This document shows, one piece after another, positions 7,389 to 19,549 of a stretch of DNA of 32,259 nucleotides (the first letter of the stretch is position 1; each line of letters begins with the position of its first letter). The notes below the pieces were generated by a model. It searched no databases, was not told where the DNA came from, and saw only the letters and a program-made list of their open reading frames with translations. Source of the stretch: a virus (lineage: Duplodnaviria; Caudoviricetes); the IMG/VR virus record IMGVR_UViG_3300032218_001494, positions 1 to 32,259 of that record. One strand, written 5' to 3'. The position numbers and the translations under genes were made by a program.

Positions 7389-7679
7389 TCAAGCATTACC
7401 TAACCTCTTAGATTCTTTACGCATATGTGTTCTAATTCGATGACAATTTGAGCAGACTACTTCGCACTTTTTGATCTCATCATCAATCTTCTTCTTCGAA
7501 AGAGTAGGGATGAGTTCAGATACATTTTTGTGCTTAATTCCTCTGACATGGTCAAAATCCATCACATAATAGGGGAAGTTTATTTTACAATCAGCGCAAG
7601 GATGTTTTTCCTTATAGTCCTGCAAATATTTAGCAAGAATAGCCTTTTGTTTTGCAATTGAGAGCTTTTCACTCTTCAT
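7389..7679 (-). CDS. HNH endonuclease
   Basis: CADC...DFDH...CEVVCSNCHRIRT. Confidence 0.85.
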   Translation of the reverse strand: MKSEKLSIAKQKAILAKYLQDYKEKHPCADCKINFPYYVMDFDHVRGIKHKNVSELIPTLSKKKIDDEIKKCEVVCSNCHRIRTHMRKESKRLGNA

Positions 7680-7747
7680 GCTAGGATGCTTTCAGCATTC
7701 ATATGGCAAGTATAGCAAGAGAAATTTTCTAGCTCCCGCCGAAAATT

Positions 7748-7915
7748 TTATTCGTTAGTTAAAGATACAGAATCTAGTAGCTTAACAGTTCTATTTGAAA
7801 CATAACCACCTTTGTCATTTAAAAGCTTTAAGGCATCTGGCTCTGTTTCTGCTAATACTTGAATAATCATCTCAACTTTATATGTGAAGCAAGATGTGTC
7901 TAATTTTTCTGACAT
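7748..7915 (-). CDS. Hypothetical protein (start 7915 or 7942)
   Basis: ORF track; AGGA upstream of MSEKLD. Confidence 0.55.
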   Translation of the reverse strand: MSEKLDTSCFTYKVEMIIQVLAETEPDALKLLNDKGGYVSNRTVKLLDSVSLTNE

Positions 7916-8057
7916 ATTAATCCTAGTCGACTGCTTTATCATATTCTACTAAATGTTAATAAAATATTTTTTTAGACTTATAGCCTTTATATTTGTATTT
8001 ATTTTTTTAATGATAACTTCCAGAATTTAAGCATACAAACCCTATACCCTTTTATAG

Positions 8058-8222
8058 AAAAAATAAAAGGACCCCGAAATGGTCAGGTTATAAATCCGCC
8101 ATTCATCGGTTGAACCATATAGGCCGTAGCTATTATCTGAAAGATATTGTATAATTACAACTTCCGTCATCATCGCACTTGGAGTTTAAACCCTTGATAT
8201 TATCTCCTAAAACTGTCCAAGG
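8058..8222 (-). ncRNA. Candidate structured non-coding RNA/leader
   Basis: Follows promoter 8228-8257, no ORF, several stems, ends in GACC-N7-GGTC hairpin plus T-rich run. Confidence 0.4.
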
Positions 8223-8227
8223 AATTT

Positions 8228-8257
8228 AGTATAACATTATAGATTTTGTTAGGTCAA
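8228..8257 (-). promoter_or_regulatory. Sigma-A-type promoter
   Basis: TTGACC-N18-TATACT with extended TG. Confidence 0.6.
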
Positions 8258-8394
8258 GTCTTTTTACAAAGTTTCTTATGATTAGATAAAGTTATATGAG
8301 CAAATCCAGAACGGACTTCTATTTCCCGCCCACATTGATCACATATTACAATTCTGGATGATGCCATCCTCACATTGTATATGTTGATCAGATT

Positions 8395-8802
8395 CTAGTC
8401 AACTACTTTATTTAAATACTTAATAGCATTATTCATAATATCTATTTTGTCATTAAACTGTCCAAGTGACATATTACAGTCGTTGCACAATAAAGCCCTT
8501 ACCCTATTTGTATCATGACAATGATCTATATGGGTAAATTTTGTGCCTTTAAATTCAATACTACAAATTTTGCATTTATTGTTTTGATCAACAAGCATTT
8601 GATCAAATTGCTCTTGAGTAATTCCATATCTACGTTCTTTGGTACGCTCTCGCATTCTTGCTAAATTCCTTGCAGTATTTTCTGGATTATCTTTTCTCCA
8701 TTTTTTAGCTGCAGCATTTTTGCAATCCTTGCAATCTTTTCTACGTTCATAGAAATCAGAAATATTTTTTTCTATCCCGCACACCTTACATGTTTTTAAC
8801 AT
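8395..8802 (-). CDS. Endonuclease VII-family HNH nuclease with N-terminal zinc finger
   Basis: KTCKVC...CKDC; YGIT..Q...Q.N.CKIC...IDHCH...VRALLC..CN..LG.F.D; likely start 8802. Confidence 0.88.
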   Translation of the reverse strand: MLKTCKVCGIEKNISDFYERRKDCKDCKNAAAKKWRKDNPENTARNLARMRERTKERRYGITQEQFDQMLVDQNNKCKICSIEFKGTKFTHIDHCHDTNRVRALLCNDCNMSLGQFNDKIDIMNNAIKYLNKVVD

Positions 8803-9238
8803 AGGATATAGCCTTTCTAATTGTTTCAATATTGTCTTTAAATCCACCTAGACCAAGGTTACAGTTTCTACAAAGTAGTCCACGAATTTTATCTGTATTG
8901 TGACAATGATCTACTGCTGCTTCCCACCCAATTTGTTTTTTACAAATAGCACATTGATTATTCTGATCAACTAGCATTTGTGCATAGTCTTCACGAGATA
9001 TTCCATATTTTATTTTTCTAGATGTTGCAATAGTTGCAGACTTATACTTTTCTGGATTTTCCTTCTTCCACTTTTTATTTCGCTCCCTAAAACAAGGTAT
9101 GCAATATGCAGCAAGGCCATCCTGTCTGGACTTCCATTTATAATACTCTGATCTTTCTTTTAGTTCCCCGCAAATTGGACAAGTTTTGTGCGTTGCAGTA
9201 TTTGCCATGTAGAACTTGCCTTTTCCAATATTAGCCAT
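8786..9238 (-). CDS. Endonuclease VII-family HNH nuclease with N-terminal zinc finger
   Basis: KTCPIC...CIPC; YGIS...CAIC...VDHCH...IRGLLC..CN.GLG.FKD; TACAAT 6 nt before ATG (leaderless). Confidence 0.88.
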   Translation of the reverse strand: MANIGKGKFYMANTATHKTCPICGELKERSEYYKWKSRQDGLAAYCIPCFRERNKKWKKENPEKYKSATIATSRKIKYGISREDYAQMLVDQNNQCAICKKQIGWEAAVDHCHNTDKIRGLLCRNCNLGLGGFKDNIETIRKAISYVKNM

Positions 9239-9438: not shown

Positions 9439-9460
9439 TGTCAGTCCCCCCATGTATAGT
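9439..9460 (+). promoter_or_regulatory. PafBC/RecA-NDp-type promoter 1
   Basis: TGTCAG-N10-TATAGT. Confidence 0.8.
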
Positions 9461-10416: not shown

Positions 10417-10471
10417 CCTAACGGTGTGTCGCCTTGACAAAAGGCGATGCGCCCACAGCTTTTGTGGGGGC

Positions 10472-10522
10472 TGTGGATAACTTACGGTAAACTGTGGATA
10501 AATCCTGAAAATCTGTGGACGA
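10472..10522. promoter_or_regulatory. DnaA-box cluster
   Basis: TGTGGATAA at 10472 and 10493, TGTGGACGA at 10514 (21-bp spacing). Confidence 0.7.
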
Positions 10523-10536
10523 CACGCCCGAGATCT

Positions 10537-10552
10537 TGTGAGATTTATCACA
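10537..10552. promoter_or_regulatory. CRP/GlxR-type site
   Basis: TGTGA-GATTTA-TCACA. Confidence 0.7.
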
Positions 10553-10600
10553 TGGCTTGAGCGTCTCACATCTTGGAATTACTGGCTAGTAATTAGTTTA

Positions 10601-10622: not shown

Positions 10623-10657
10623 TCCATTCATAACAACAAACGAAAGAAGGTCTGCCA

Positions 10658-10992: not shown

Positions 10993-11114
10993 ACTTAGAC
11001 GAATTCAAAAAGCACGTGTTAGCAACACGGCAAGCAAGCAAGGCGGAAGCCTTGTCAGTGCTATCTGCTACAATTACAACTCAACCAAACGAAAGGGAAA
11101 ACCTAAATGGCTAA
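10989..11114 (+). CDS. 41-aa protein overlapping promoter 4
   Basis: ATGA coupling; MNLDEFKKHV... Confidence 0.5.
   Translation: MNLDEFKKHVLATRQASKAEALSVLSATITTQPNERENLNG
11053..11074 (+). promoter_or_regulatory. PafBC-type promoter 4
   Basis: TGTCAG-N10-TACAAT. Confidence 0.8.
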
Positions 11115-11774: not shown

Positions 11775-11848
11775 TGCATATCTATGCAGCCCCCAAATAT
11801 GTGGGGGCAAAACTTGCCTTACGTCAAGTTATGAAAACGCCTGGAATT

Positions 11849-11864
11849 TGTGAGATTAATCACA
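11849..11864. promoter_or_regulatory. CRP/GlxR-type site
   Basis: TGTGA-GATTAA-TCACA. Confidence 0.7.
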
Positions 11865-11901
11865 TAAATAAATTAAATAATCATCGGCGTGTTGCAATAA
11901 A

Positions 11902-11923: not shown

Positions 11924-11953
11924 TCTCATATTCCAACAACGAAAGGTAAAAAA

Positions 11954-12157
11954 ATGATAGTAGAACATAACTTAAAGTTTGTTACAGAGTTTAAGAAAGG
12001 CCACCCAGTAACTCAACAGGTCATGGCACTTGATGAAAACACCCGTATCTTTATGCTAGAGTCAATGCTAAAAGATTTAATCGCACCACGCCTGCAACCA
12101 ATCATTGATGAGATTAACGCTAACGGTTCCTATGCAATTCTGAAGGTTGCAGAATAA
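11954..12157 (+). CDS. Hypothetical protein
   Basis: Start MIVEHN after CAACGAAAGG. Confidence 0.7.
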   Translation: MIVEHNLKFVTEFKKGHPVTQQVMALDENTRIFMLESMLKDLIAPRLQPIIDEINANGSYAILKVAE

Positions 12158-12617: not shown

Positions 12618-12643
12618 AACACCCTAAACGAAAGAAGGAAAAA

Positions 12644-12809: not shown

Positions 12810-12839
12810 TGTCCTGAGCATGACAGTTAAAACTGCTCA
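12810..12839 (+). ncRNA. Candidate H-type pseudoknot, copy 1
   Basis: TGTC/GACA stem 1, TGAGCA/TGCTCA stem 2. Confidence 0.5.
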
Positions 12840-12876
12840 CCCTTCCAACTAAACCCAACGAAAAGGAAACTAACAA

Positions 12877-13299: not shown

Positions 13300-13374
13300 T
13301 TAAGTAATTGGGGGGCTAGACAAACTCTAGCCTCCCATGCTATAATTCTTATCCCTACTAACAAAGGAAATAAA

Positions 13375-13645: not shown

Positions 13646-13689
13646 TAACTTCCCATCTCATTATGCGAGATGCCCCCAATACTGAGGGG

Positions 13690-13720
13690 TTATCCACAGG
13701 CTTACGGTACCTGTGGAAAA
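13690..13720. promoter_or_regulatory. Inverted DnaA-box pair
   Basis: TTATCCACA 13690 and TGTGGAAAA 13712. Confidence 0.65.
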
Positions 13721-13732
13721 CGCCCGAGATTT

Positions 13733-13748
13733 TGTGAGATTGATCACA
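13733..13748. promoter_or_regulatory. CRP/GlxR-type site
   Basis: TGTGA-GATTGA-TCACA. Confidence 0.7.
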
Positions 13749-13786
13749 CAACACAATTCGGACAAATGACTCTTTAGATTAGGTAA

Positions 13787-13808: not shown

Positions 13809-13839
13809 CAATTCATCAACCAATCGAAAGGAAATAAAA

Positions 13840-14844
13840 ATGGCTCATAATCTAGAAATGGAAAACGGCGAAATCGCATTCGCTCTTCGTGGTGCTCCTG
13901 CTTGGCATAACCTTGCCAATCGTATCTTCACACAAGATGAAGAAGTTACAACACAAACAATGCTCGAAGAGGCAAAGTTGGCTAAGTGGAATGTTCGCTT
14001 ATCTCCAATCACTGAACACGTACCAGAATCTTGGAATGATGTTTCTAATGCATCTCTCGTTATTCGTGACAACCCATTCAACGGTGGAACAGATATCCTT
14101 GCAACTGTTGGCAAGCGTTACAAGCCTGTACAGAATGAAGAACTATTTGCATTCGCTGATGCAATTCACGATGCCAATGCTGATTGCCGTTGGGAATCTG
14201 CTGGCTCATTAAAGCAGGGTAAAGTTGTGTTTGGAACTGTAGATATTCCACGCACAATGATATTAGACCCACAAGGCGCTAATGATGCTACAAAACTTTA
14301 TCTAATTGTTTGGACAAGCCATGATGGGTCTGTTGCTGTTCAAGCAGCCGTCACACCTGTTCGTGTTGTTTGCCAAAACACATTAAACTTAGCGATGAAA
14401 AGCGCAAAGCAATCTTTCAAGATTCGCCACACGCAATCTGTTGAGGGTCGCATTCAAGTTGCTCGTGAGACTCTTGGTCTTGCTCTTGGATATTTCGATG
14501 AATTCGAAAAAGAAGCGCAAGCACTTTATTCTCAATCTATTACAGATGCAGAATTCTCAAAGTTGATTCGCACAATTTATCCTAAGCCTGAAAAGGATAC
14601 TAAGGGTGCCCTAACTAAATGGGAAAATAAAGTTGTGTTGCTTGATGATTTATATCATAACTCACCAACCAATGCTAATATCAAAGGCACAAAGTGGGGT
14701 GCCTTTAATGCGCTAACTGAACGTTTAGATTACTACCGCACATCTCGTGGTAATTCTGAATCACTAATGGCTGGCGCATCTGGATTTGACCCTGTGCTAA
14801 CTGCAGAAAAAAACAAAATCAAAAAGTTAATTTTTGCTTTCTAA
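13840..14844 (+). CDS. DUF932 / TIGR03299 phage-plasmid protein
   Basis: MAH.L...PAWH.L; VG.RY.PVQN.E.F; ESAGSL..G; SHDGS; TPVRVVCQNTL; RHT; GT.WGAFNA.TE. Confidence 0.9.
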   Translation: MAHNLEMENGEIAFALRGAPAWHNLANRIFTQDEEVTTQTMLEEAKLAKWNVRLSPITEHVPESWNDVSNASLVIRDNPFNGGTDILATVGKRYKPVQNEELFAFADAIHDANADCRWESAGSLKQGKVVFGTVDIPRTMILDPQGANDATKLYLIVWTSHDGSVAVQAAVTPVRVVCQNTLNLAMKSAKQSFKIRHTQSVEGRIQVARETLGLALGYFDEFEKEAQALYSQSITDAEFSKLIRTIYPKPEKDTKGALTKWENKVVLLDDLYHNSPTNANIKGTKWGAFNALTERLDYYRTSRGNSESLMAGASGFDPVLTAEKNKIKKLIFAF

Positions 14845-14851
14845 AAAAATA

Positions 14852-14880
14852 AAATCCTGAGCACGATTTAAAACTGCTCA
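14852..14880 (+). ncRNA. Candidate H-type pseudoknot, copy 2
   Basis: AAATC/GATTT stem 1, TGAGCA/TGCTCA stem 2. Confidence 0.5.
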
Positions 14881-14989
14881 ACCCTTCGGGGCGTGGAAGC
14901 TTGACAGATCGTGGAAAATGCCCCCAAGCTTAAAAGCACAATTTTGATCATACGAGAGGCAAATAAATTTGCCTGAATCTATAGACATT

Positions 14990-15011
14990 TGTCAGTGGTA
15001 CCTGCTACAAT
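14990..15011 (+). promoter_or_regulatory. PafBC-type promoter 8
   Basis: TGTCAG-N10-TACAAT. Confidence 0.8.
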
Positions 15012-15042
15012 ACTACCTATCAACCAAACGAAAGAGGAAAAA

Positions 15043-15507
15043 ATGGAAGAAACATCAATGAACAATCTGCCACTGTCAGATGCAGAAAAGTACAATCCAA
15101 ATCAATTAGTTACATATAAGATTATCCACGGATACTCTGACCCTGAATATGCAACTACCAAGGTTGCATCTCTTGAATGGGATTTGCACAATGCACGTCA
15201 AACTCAAAAAACAAACGGCTCCTTGACTAACAAAATTAGTTTAGTTAAAGATATTATTACTGAAGCATATGCTGATTCAGATGACCAAGAAACACTTCGT
15301 TCAATTGCTGAAGCACTTGATATTGAATTAACTAGAACAGTTGAATGGTCTGCAACTATTGAAGTTAGCGGAACTATTGAATTAGATTTGCTTGCTGATT
15401 CAGATACAGATATTGAATCAGAAATCTACGACAATCTTTATGTTGAATCACAACACGGTAACATCCAAGTAGATGACACCGAAGTTACAAATGTAAGGGA
15501 GAACTAA
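15043..15507 (+). CDS. Hypothetical acidic protein
   Basis: Start MEETSM after GAGGA. Confidence 0.8.
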   Translation: MEETSMNNLPLSDAEKYNPNQLVTYKIIHGYSDPEYATTKVASLEWDLHNARQTQKTNGSLTNKISLVKDIITEAYADSDDQETLRSIAEALDIELTRTVEWSATIEVSGTIELDLLADSDTDIESEIYDNLYVESQHGNIQVDDTEVTNVREN

Positions 15508-16079: not shown

Positions 16080-16487
16080 ATGGGAGACAGAGCAAACTTT
16101 GTATTTGTAGACGAGAATGCAAATGCATTAGTACTATATGGACACTGGGCAGGGCACCAAATGCTTAGTAATTTGGCAGACGCAGTAATTAAGGCACGTC
16201 CACGTTGGAGTGATACATCATATGCAACACGTATTGCTATCAGTCAACTAGTGGGGGACCAATGGAATATGGAAACAGGTTGGGGATTAACTATTAATTC
16301 AATTAGTGACAACGAGCACAAGATTCCTGTTATTGATTGGAAGCAGCAAACGTTTAGTCTTCATGAAGAAGATAGTTTTGCTAACACTGATAATAAAGTA
16401 CGTGGCATGAAAAACGAAGCAATTTTTACACAGGACCTTTCGTCCTTCTGTGAGAAATATGCTTTGAATGAATTGCTTACAGTATAA
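16080..16487 (+). CDS. Hypothetical phage protein (MGDR...LY.HW.G family)
   Basis: 135 aa ORF with recognisable N-terminal motif. Confidence 0.8.
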   Translation: MGDRANFVFVDENANALVLYGHWAGHQMLSNLADAVIKARPRWSDTSYATRIAISQLVGDQWNMETGWGLTINSISDNEHKIPVIDWKQQTFSLHEEDSFANTDNKVRGMKNEAIFTQDLSSFCEKYALNELLTV

Positions 16488-16497
16488 CTAAATAAGT

Positions 16498-16613
16498 AAA
16501 GGTGCGGCTATGAGGCATTCGCCAAGTCGTTAAATAATGCAGGTTTTTACTTTCGTTGGTTATCCTAGCAGCCTTAATAAGAGATCCTCCAGGTAAGATC
16601 TGGGGGATTTTTT
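16498..16613 (+). ncRNA. Candidate structured antisense sRNA (3'UTR-derived or independent)
   Basis: Stems AAGGT/GCCTT, GCGGCT/AGTCGT, TGCAGG/CCT(A)GCA; loop CTTTCGTTGGTT; terminator 16584-16613; no ORF. Confidence 0.6.
16584..16613 (+). terminator. Intrinsic terminator
   Basis: ATCCTCCAGG...TCTGGGGGAT followed by T run. Confidence 0.7.
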
Positions 16614-16742
16614 ATATGCCCCCAAAGACATGAGGGTATCAAAATTTCCTTACGGTGTCAATATAAATTCGCCTGAAATTTGGTGATCTAGACCACAAAG
16701 CTGGGGAATGTGGTGTGTATCACACGATATACCCTATACAAA

Positions 16743-16764
16743 TGTCAGTGGTCCATTGTATAAT
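16743..16764 (+). promoter_or_regulatory. PafBC-type promoter 9 (degenerate CRP-like sites at 16682 and 16709)
   Basis: TGTCAG-N10-TATAAT; TGTGG-N6-TCACA upstream. Confidence 0.8.
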
Positions 16765-16791
16765 TGGAACATATCAACGAAAGGATATAAT

Positions 16792-17538
16792 ATGCCAAAT
16801 TGGGTGTATAACGGATTAACTATAGAAGGTAATCCTGAGCAAGTTAAATCTTTAATTAAACAGATGAATAAGCCATTTGTTCAATCTATTGAACCATTAG
16901 GTGATTTATCATTTGAGATTAAACAACGTAAGTATGTTAATCCTATCTTTGCTTTTCATAATATATATTCTTATCTAGACCATGGTGTTACTGAGAAGGA
17001 ATATCATTCTCAACCGCCGACCAAAAATCCTGACCAAACATTTGCTGATTATATAAAGTTTGAATCTAACGATTGGTATAACTTTAATAATCGTGAGTGG
17101 GGCACCAAATGGGATGTGGCTGTAGCCGAGGATGACAAGTATCCTAATACTAATATGGAGGAAGCCGAGAACGGTGAAAACTATGTAGTTCATTACAACT
17201 TTGAAACTGCTTGGAGCCGTCCTCTACCTGCTATTCAAAAACTGTCTGCACAATACCCAACATTACTCTTTACTTTATCATATGAAGAAGAGACAGGCTG
17301 GGGTGGGGAAATGGAATTCCTTCGTGGAGAAGTTATCTCAGAATCAGAATATGACAATATGTGTCGTGATTGTGATGCAACTGACCAAATGGAATACTGC
17401 GAAGAAGAAGACTGTGGCCAAATCTGTGGCAACTGCCACTGGCTTGGCGAGGCAGACCTAGAGGCTGTGGCTAAATGTCAGACCCATAGTATATACTTAG
17501 CAACAAAAGTTCCTGAATATAGAAAGGCGGAAGTATAA
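16792..17538 (+). CDS. DUF1281/YubB-like ferredoxin-fold protein with C-terminal Cys cluster
   Basis: MPNW..N.L.I.G; WY.....WGTKWD; F.TAWS.P; L.Y.EE. Confidence 0.8.
   Translation: MPNWVYNGLTIEGNPEQVKSLIKQMNKPFVQSIEPLGDLSFEIKQRKYVNPIFAFHNIYSYLDHGVTEKEYHSQPPTKNPDQTFADYIKFESNDWYNFNNREWGTKWDVAVAEDDKYPNTNMEEAENGENYVVHYNFETAWSRPLPAIQKLSAQYPTLLFTLSYEEETGWGGEMEFLRGEVISESEYDNMCRDCDATDQMEYCEEEDCGQICGNCHWLGEADLEAVAKCQTHSIYLATKVPEYRKAEV
17476..17497 (+). promoter_or_regulatory. PafBC-type promoter 10 (inside gene 3' end)
   Basis: TGTCAG-N10-TATACT. Confidence 0.7.
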
Positions 17539-18351: not shown

Positions 18352-18371
18352 GAACTCTACTAACGAAAGGT

Positions 18372-19405: not shown

Positions 19406-19549
19406 ATGGCAACAAAGCGTGAATATCTAAAGCAGCAAGGCATTACAGTGGGTGCTCGTGGTCGTTTCTCAGGTGCAGCAAAGGTCGCTCTAGCAGAGGC
19501 GGAAAAGAATGGTCTCAAGTTTGAGGCGGAGTCTAACAAGACTAAGTAA
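19406..19549 (+). CDS. Stand-alone Lsr2-like DNA-binding domain (47 aa)
   Basis: MATKREYLKQQGITVGARGRFSGAAK resembles Lsr2 C-terminal RE.....G..V..RGR; AAGGGG RBS; missed by ORF track. Confidence 0.75.
   Translation: MATKREYLKQQGITVGARGRFSGAAKVALAEAEKNGLKFEAESNKTK

Follow-up and report, generated by a model that had tools for sequence, protein, structure and literature searches.

A conserved three-way-junction RNA of an uncultured phage with a loop complementary to a shared early-gene leader tag: a candidate anti-ribosome-binding-site sRNA

Genome setting of the element

The DNA analyzed here, referred to as the window, is a stretch of 32,259 nucleotides from a virus of the Caudoviricetes (IMG/VR record IMGVR_UViG_3300032218_001494, completeness 28%). 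Between 9.4 and 19.9 kb it carries a plus-strand block of small genes, including one for a DUF932 protein that is ∼50% identical to those which Streptomyces cluster BE phages carry in their terminal repeats, a gene (16080-16487) with homologs in cluster BE phages and in Actinomycetia phage DSL-LC01, and an Lsr2-like gene at 19406. From these homologies and the Lsr2-like gene, we infer that the uncultured phage probably infects actinobacteria and presume that the block consists of early genes. Just left of it, the minus strand (7389-9238) carries one HNH gene together with a pair of endonuclease VII-like genes that are adjacent and overlap.

The block contains 12 forward copies of a PafBC-type motif (TGTCRG-N10-TANNNT), with none in reverse and none of the motif written backwards as a control. 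All 12 match the consensus tGTCgg(N10)tA(N3)T, as given in an excerpt of PMC8635444, and may be read by host PafBC or by a phage-encoded activator. Ordinary -35/-10 promoters at 13317, 18782, 19344 and 19581 (plus strand) form a second class within the block. A degenerate long repeat (GCCCCCA..GAGGG..TTACG..TCAA..CGCCTG..GTGA..TCACA) lies upstream of several PafBC-type promoters, at 11789-11865, 13672-13750, 16618-16725 and about 10455-10555; it is an ESAS-like DNA element and is kept in relatives. An intergenic motif, CTGAGCA-N-TAAAACTGCTCA, is repeated at 12814-12840 and 14857-14882 (plus strand). Of 10 related 20-kb stretches, 6 contain it, as does one stretch of the seedless clade described below; an Rfam search gave no match to it.

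A structured RNA element behind gene 16080-16487

An initial annotation had described positions 16498-16613 as an ORF-free element of three stems and an intrinsic terminator, presenting a large loop antisense to the ribosome-binding leaders of the early mRNAs. This observation was confirmed overall: no ORF of at least 40 amino acids crosses the element, the loop text TTTTTACTTTCGTTGGTT lies at 16544-16561, and the predicted fold (z = -3.54) was equalled by 0 of 200 shuffles. The three helices and the terminator are present, with the refinement that an outer stem closes the first two into a three-way junction. The parts are as follows.

16498-16575, plus strand: three-way-junction RNA scaffold (72-sequence alignment, covariation)
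16498-16503/16571-16575, plus strand: helix P1 of the scaffold
16505-16509/16525-16529, plus strand: helix P2
16514-16523, plus strand: hairpin P3
16530-16538, plus strand: junction
16530-16534, plus strand: Y-UAA-R junction element, a predicted lone-pair triloop (covarying alignment columns 53/57)
16539-16569, plus strand: arm P4
16544-16563, plus strand: U-rich guide loop of P4 (fold, alignment)
16550-16557, plus strand: invariant seed CUUUCGUU, the complement of AACGAAAG
16580-16613, plus strand: intrinsic-terminator-like hairpin with a U run (fold; absent from the output of a simple terminator scan)

Across the 72 aligned sequences, 85.9% of the cells of the three-way junction are paired, compared to 74.5% after shuffling (0 of 500 shuffles as good). 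P2 is paired throughout (100%, with 36 and 32 double changes), P4 in 93.8%, P1 in 88.7% and the poorly aligned P3 in 37%; invariant columns set by the search pattern count as no evidence here, and kinship inflates the covariation counts. The columns closing the Y-UAA-R element are U-A in 36 sequences, C-G in 31 and U-C in 5, which is the pattern expected from the lone-pair UAA triloop of type C three-way junctions described in the part of PMC6689051 consulted. A covariance model of the scaffold, R1, scores the window element at 81 bits, and a terminator-like hairpin follows within 75 nt in 52 of 71 distinct cores.

The loop is less open than the initial annotation had it. In the energy model of the window, UUCGUU is 0.6 to 1.0 unpaired but the ACU/GGU flanks are predicted to be paired, and mean seed accessibility exceeds 0.7 in only 31 of 68 seed-bearing relatives. 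The seed is always within a hairpin loop.

Behind 44 homologs of the upstream gene (many of them near-copies), the scaffold was found in 42, a simple hairpin in one (L052) and nothing in one (L063). In the last of these (L063:6405-6430), the break falls inside the 5' strand of P1, as a natural deletion or an assembly artefact.

The RNA matched nothing catalogued. Rfam gave 0 matches at gathering score over the whole window; searches with the element and with its copies in the seedless clade and in Streptomyces phage Wofford yielded weak matches only, terminator-driven or unrelated. Short words in the element resemble the pistol ribozyme, yet a pistol or hatchet identity is unsupported; the pistol pseudoknot is not conserved by eye in the alignment, and the Rfam pistol, hatchet and twister models, in non-permuted form, did not match the window or the seedless-clade and Wofford copies. 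ARAGORN detected neither tRNA nor tmRNA in the window, and reading P4 as a tmRNA-like tag frame fails, the length of the arm not being a constant multiple of three. Comparison of the element with cultured phages (blastn) returned chance matches only, and the literature searched does not describe this RNA; none of six short motifs occurs in the checked part of the supplements of PMC10690425, among whose candidates the motif may still be. We conclude that the structured RNA element is real, conserved and uncatalogued.

The seed is constant while its surroundings vary

Loss of the seed in relatives had been named beforehand as a result that would speak against the proposal. A viral pattern search with no seed in the query found at least 119 loci with 71 distinct cores, and among the matches listed the arm contains CTTTCGTT in 115 of 119 loci and in 68 of the 71 cores. 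Metagenome matches gave the same picture, with CTTTCGT present in 68 of 69 distinct full-core matches (120 loci) and a single-base difference in the remaining one; this count leaves out 27 of 96 matches lacking the P1 core, 23 without the seed and 4 with it. The 68 seed-bearing viral cores display 59 forms of the P3 arm and 23 P4 stem bases around the constant seed, which is thus singled out by selection. The unrelated simple hairpin of L052 presents the same seed at the same locus, and the leaders of L052 are tagged. A search of 185,579 prokaryote genomes produced four pattern matches, two by chance in coding sequence and two on short MAG contigs with phage-type context, so that no cellular copy was found.

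The complement of the seed tags leaders of the early block

The tag AACGAAAG occurs in 7 exact plus-strand copies in the window, where 0.36 are expected per strand (maximum of 2 in 100 Markov samples). Its sole minus-strand copy is the CUUUCGUU of the element, with 0.0013 expected within 116 nt. All seven exact tags lie in leaders, each ∼40 nt or less after a PafBC-type motif. The nine leader matches of the initial annotation were recovered at the places given there to within 1 nt, seven of them exact and those at 13818 and 12855 imperfect.

10639-10646, plus strand: exact tag, leader of ORF 10658; predicted target
11088-11095, plus strand: exact tag, leader of ORF 11107; predicted target with the best duplex (-22.4 kcal/mol)
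11938-11945, plus strand: exact tag, leader of the ORF starting at 11954; predicted target
12627-12634, plus strand: exact tag, leader of ORF 12644; predicted target whose duplex is weak and ranks 21st among 78
12855-12866, plus strand: imperfect tag (extra A) of ORF 12877, internal to a transcript, with no promoter motif within 75 nt
13818-13830, plus strand: imperfect tag (one change) of the DUF932 gene starting at 13840
15027-15034, plus strand: exact tag, leader of the ORF starting at 15043 in the operon upstream of the RNA; predicted target
16776-16783, plus strand: exact tag, leader of the downstream Api92-like gene starting at 16792; predicted target
18362-18369, plus strand: exact tag, leader of ORF 18372/18378; predicted target

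A tagged leader follows only 8 of the 12 PafBC-type promoters, those at 9439, 9841, 17476 and 18055 having none, which narrows the earlier claim that the whole early regulon is addressed. The tag is also absent from the checked leaders of the ordinary -35/-10 promoters (13375, 18870, 19406 and 19635), a natural control group.

When the leaders of the window were ranked by predicted duplex with the RNA, the tagged ones were favored, as anticipated in the initial annotation: the seven best duplexes of 78 UTRs all belong to the nine leaders, and the mean was -14.3 kcal/mol for the 12 promoter-proximal UTRs compared to -9.3 kcal/mol for the 66 others, in a ranking that ignores accessibility, is partly circular and includes among its controls 15726, which is not a real start. 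Seed and tag would form a core duplex of 8 bp, made up largely of A-U pairs, and the energy model has some of the seed already paired.

The GAAAG half of the tag is presumably the Shine-Dalgarno (SD) sequence; GAAAGG pairs with the 16S tail. AAC stands before a GAAAGR SD in 84 of 122 promoter-proximal genes but in 9 of 60 others (ten 20-kb stretches plus the window). The initial annotation had read conservation of the AACG part, not needed for SD pairing, as a pointer to an sRNA. This argument was not borne out. Phage DSL-LC01 carries 22 copies of ACGAAAGG, every one of them before a start codon and all in the same orientation. On the strand of these leaders neither CCTTTCGT nor CTTTCGTC occurs, and the phage has neither an antisense copy nor a match to the scaffold. 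It follows that the tag also serves as a strong ribosome-binding site of a generic kind, for which the RNA is not required, and its conservation alone is no sign of an RNA regulator.

Seed and tag compared across clades

Seed and tag do occur together between clades. On one strand, 6 to 14 tags per record were counted in 12 of 12 seed-bearing records, as opposed to 0 to 1 in 8 of 8 records with a seedless scaffold; this is a single comparison of two clades, the seedless one being represented largely by fragments (six of the eight records). Promoter-proximal genes of the PafBC type are mostly leaderless in the seedless clade.

The guide comes in two flavors, in which pairing is extended either upstream by GG or downstream by UUC. 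Over 56 genomes (36 and 20, all with the seed and at least 5 leaders), the leader flanks follow the flavor of the guide in the predicted direction, with C at -5/-4 at 0.47 versus 0.29 and GA after GAAAG at 0.28 versus 0.65. On a DUF932 tree the flavor changes 8 times, giving 5 independent pairs on well-supported branches, of which 2.4 to 3.1 go the predicted way and 0.1 the opposite way (sign test, p = 0.25 to 0.5); a second marker tree yields 1 independent pair. The covariation of seed and leaders anticipated in the initial annotation was thus seen as a trend, which is non-significant once kinship is controlled because independent flavor switches are too few. A host-driven preference in ribosome-binding sites could produce the same trend.

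The scaffold without the seed

The same scaffold, with a short seedless loop, is present in a distant clade. Model R1 moreover matches positions 795-867 of Streptomyces phage Wofford (E = 0.009). In turn, 85 Streptomyces phage records match that stretch; of the 60 matches listed, 57 span 66% of it or more, and nearly all the listed copies are unannotated and lie at the end of the terminal repeat. R1 finds 9 of 11 cluster BE copies, weakly (E = 0.0025 to 0.58). Ten cluster BE copies recognizably share a -35/-10 promoter, the junction and the words of P2-P3, and their arm loop is A(A/U)GGUCGG. The cluster BE scaffold is probably homologous to that of the window, and judging from these sequences the scaffold is probably a conserved frame with a clade-specific loop, older than the present guide. 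Complements of the cluster BE and seedless-clade loops were not enriched in the early-region stretches counted.

All 10 cluster BE copies compared (e.g., L364:785-880 and L372:755-858, both minus strand) carry a tail, ACCUUUCAA, directly after P1. Compared by eye with leaders of phage Samisti12 that begin GACAUCGAAAGG, it pairs at 11 of 12 positions; the counts of CGAAAGG by strand over 12 kb are 9 versus 0 and 7 versus 0. The tail may be a second anti-leader guide or an extension of P1 with a UGU bulge. In Wofford (L185:8418-8697), a tmRNA lies behind the homolog of gene 16080-16487, where the window clade has the three-way-junction RNA; this tmRNA is a different element.

Presumed transcription of the RNA

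Two features of the window bear on the source of the transcript.

14990-15011, plus strand: promoter motif of the PafBC type for the operon that precedes the RNA, a possible source of read-through (motif match)
16483-16488, plus strand: degenerate -10-like hexamer TATAAC across the stop codon of gene 16080-16487, of putative activity (sequence)

Among cores with the P2 type of the window (GG-type), TAYAAT stands upstream in 34 of 35 and is joined by an extended TG in 32; for the other P2 types it is missing in 21 of 36. In the seedless clade, a complete -35/-10 promoter precedes the RNA. Given a promoter of its own in many relatives and the terminator-like hairpins, the RNA would usually be a free-standing gene. 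It had been proposed to be cut from the 3'UTR of the 14990 operon; with a -10 element in 34 of 35 relatives of the same P2 type and only the degenerate TATAAC in the window, this origin is unproven, and read-through from 14990 is a possible source in the window phage but not the rule. Most GG-type relatives (L066, L068, L072, L079, L136 and others) have a small GGCC/GGUCC hairpin between their -10 element and P1; the window lacks this hairpin.

Contigs of relatives make up small shares of four RNA runs, and the element is covered in two metatranscriptome runs, by one contig over 16492-16560 and by another over 16541-16628. These contigs give neither strand nor ends and cover the presumed silent DNA at 16709-16760 as well; since all the runs consist of contigs, parts cannot be ranked by depth and an uncovered stretch proves nothing.

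A proposed anti-leader sRNA and its alternatives

We favor, as somewhat probable, the reading of the element as a chaperone-free anti-RBS sRNA that damps the early mRNAs of its own phage. It draws on conservation, stem covariation, invariance of the seed, complementarity, and co-occurrence of seed and tag at the level of clades; transcription, chaperone-free pairing, repression and outcome are inferred. The RNA would accumulate from its own housekeeping-type promoter, as in many relatives, or by read-through from 14990. The three-way junction would hold out the loop, which would pair in trans with the AACGAAAG tags. An sRNA duplex over the SD usually blocks initiation, and the tag duplex would block ribosome loading on most tagged early leaders at once; as the tag overlaps the SD, initiation would fall on the first gene of most PafBC-type transcripts, and coupled downstream genes would follow. 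The outcome might be a threshold against leaky early expression or a later shut-down of PafBC-type transcripts, such as the delayed timer of the initial annotation, and a housekeeping-type promoter fits threshold and delayed shut-off alike. The scaffold would provide a compact, stable fold, probably with different loops in different clades. The regulatory interpretation of the initial annotation is thereby partly upheld: the conserved RNA, its seed and the target ranking speak for it, but its whole-regulon scope, the AACG argument and the 3'UTR cut are not supported. A broader proposal, which we advance only tentatively and hold to be rather doubtful, is an actinophage-wide class of RNAs, from freshwater clades to Streptomyces cluster BE, in which a fixed scaffold with a swappable guide turns off a gene class through an address tag in early leaders; in this proposal the scaffold may recruit a protein or cleave.

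Several other explanations have to be weighed. The loop might mainly pair with host mRNAs having the same strong ribosome-binding site, as an anti-SD competitor in host take-over, the phage match being a by-product because loop and leaders both follow the preference of the host. That the tag is a general actinophage RBS, in DSL-LC01 and Wofford alike, would agree with this, as would the CCUUUC flavor of the guide, which we take to resemble the 16S 3' tail; host differences could also yield the flank covariation. We nevertheless consider such a role unlikely: enrichment in the leaders of the phage itself extends past the SD to the whole 8-mer (84/122 versus 9/60), and these leaders would be hit too, and the clade without tagged leaders is also without the seed.

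The RNA could also pair with early leaders to an effect other than simple repression, namely stabilization of 5' ends, delivery of a nuclease or protein, or its own titration by the leaders. The scaffold has conserved unpaired positions and is kept without the seed in other clades, and therefore has a job of its own; leaders are moreover only ∼20 to 40 nt long. Against this, the SD half of the tag lies within the duplex, for which the b' loop of C4 offers a precedent (PMC5320573, in the part consulted), and L052 keeps the seed without the scaffold, so we assign such effects a low probability.

Conservation of the loop for protein binding or folding, as a decoy or U-turn loop, would make its complementarity to leaders incidental. 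Conserved loops differ from clade to clade, and for those in the seedless clade and in cluster BE no complement is enriched in the stretches counted, which would be compatible with that. An exact 8-nt complement of the most repeated leader word of the genome (0.0013 expected in the element), the same seed in two unrelated scaffolds, and two flank flavors that each extend pairing to leaders make this explanation improbable. Finally, it is very improbable that the locus is a DNA-level site or, as considered at the outset, an inverted leader remnant: the tag does lie at a fairly fixed, operator-like distance after promoters, but the stems covary, the seed is always in a hairpin loop, and a start codon with a 30-codon frame stands behind the inverted tag in only 2 of 68 cores, so that the element is not an inverted leader.

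Phage early-to-late switches are, to our knowledge, protein-driven. If the anti-leader sRNA reading is true, a single self-encoded sRNA addressing a tag common to early genes would constitute an RNA-only class switch. Through its probable homolog, the scaffold of cultured Streptomyces cluster BE phages, this uncatalogued RNA can be tested in laboratory strains.

Comparison with known systems

The comparisons below follow parts of the papers cited. The C4 antisense RNA of phages P1 and P7 (PMC5320573) resembles the window RNA in being phage-encoded and ∼80 nt long, with a three-stem scaffold and a variable target-specifying loop; in the occlusion of a ribosome-binding site by a loop; in possible processing from a longer transcript; and in a GGU in the 5' strand of P1. 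In C4, RNase P processes the RNA at a GGW at the 5' end of P1; the GGU of the window (16501-16503) was set by the search pattern, and covarying pairs of P1 continue further upstream. C4 (PMC5320573) has two loops, a' and b', whereas the window RNA has one conserved antisense loop and a varying P3 arm; C4 targets an immunity operon in a proteobacterial phage, whereas the window RNA has about nine predicted targets in the early block of an actinophage, and many of its relatives, unlike C4, have a promoter of their own. The Rfam C4 model had no match in the window at gathering score and none on 16400-16700 at E up to 10, and no antirepressor or immunity gene was found among the 41 proteins scanned from this 28%-complete record. 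The window RNA would work like C4, yet it is not a member of the C4 family.

The 6C sRNA of actinobacteria (PMC6486639) shares a loop-presented seed, many mRNA targets and chaperone-free action in the phylum, but it is host-encoded and pairs through C-rich loops and G-C pairs, whereas the window RNA has one U-rich loop and phage-internal targets. The lone-pair UAA triloops of 23S rRNA (U1082-A1086) and of HAV IRES domain V (PMC6689051) have the Y-UAA-R closing pair in a junction strand, a recurrent folding module only; there is no sign here of rRNA mimicry or ribosomal protein binding. As in a trans-acting multi-target sRNA, the seed of the window RNA is conserved and complementary to several RBS regions; in the energy model it is partly accessible. 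The phage or satellite sRNAs SviR and PreS (10.1101/2022.04.08.487710, 10.1101/2024.10.31.621285) base-pair and are active in lytic infection, as is proposed for the window RNA. They are described as acting across satellite and phage or on the host, and in the parts of these reports consulted neither is described as silencing the phage's own early block via a shared leader tag.

The closest parallel in the leaders is offered by the start-associated sequences (SAS) of cluster K mycobacteriophages (PMC3203893, PMC11373665), a short non-palindromic motif that overlaps the RBS in numerous non-structural genes, is conserved past the SD and has a single copy in opposite orientation that is not linked to a gene start. 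The window likewise has seven exact tags in one orientation before starts and a lone inverted copy in the RNA loop. SAS differ in sequence and phage group: the 13-bp cluster K consensus (PMC3203893) is absent from the window leaders, which carry AACGAAAG, and in the window phage the inverted copy lies within the loop of a covarying RNA. The function of SAS, open since 2011 (PMC3203893), was still called unknown in 2024 (in the part of PMC11373665 consulted). Our finding offers a direct test for the function of actinophage start-associated motifs. If the broader, tentative proposal of an actinophage-wide RNA class is true, the same logic would explain SAS and their lone inverted copy in cluster K.
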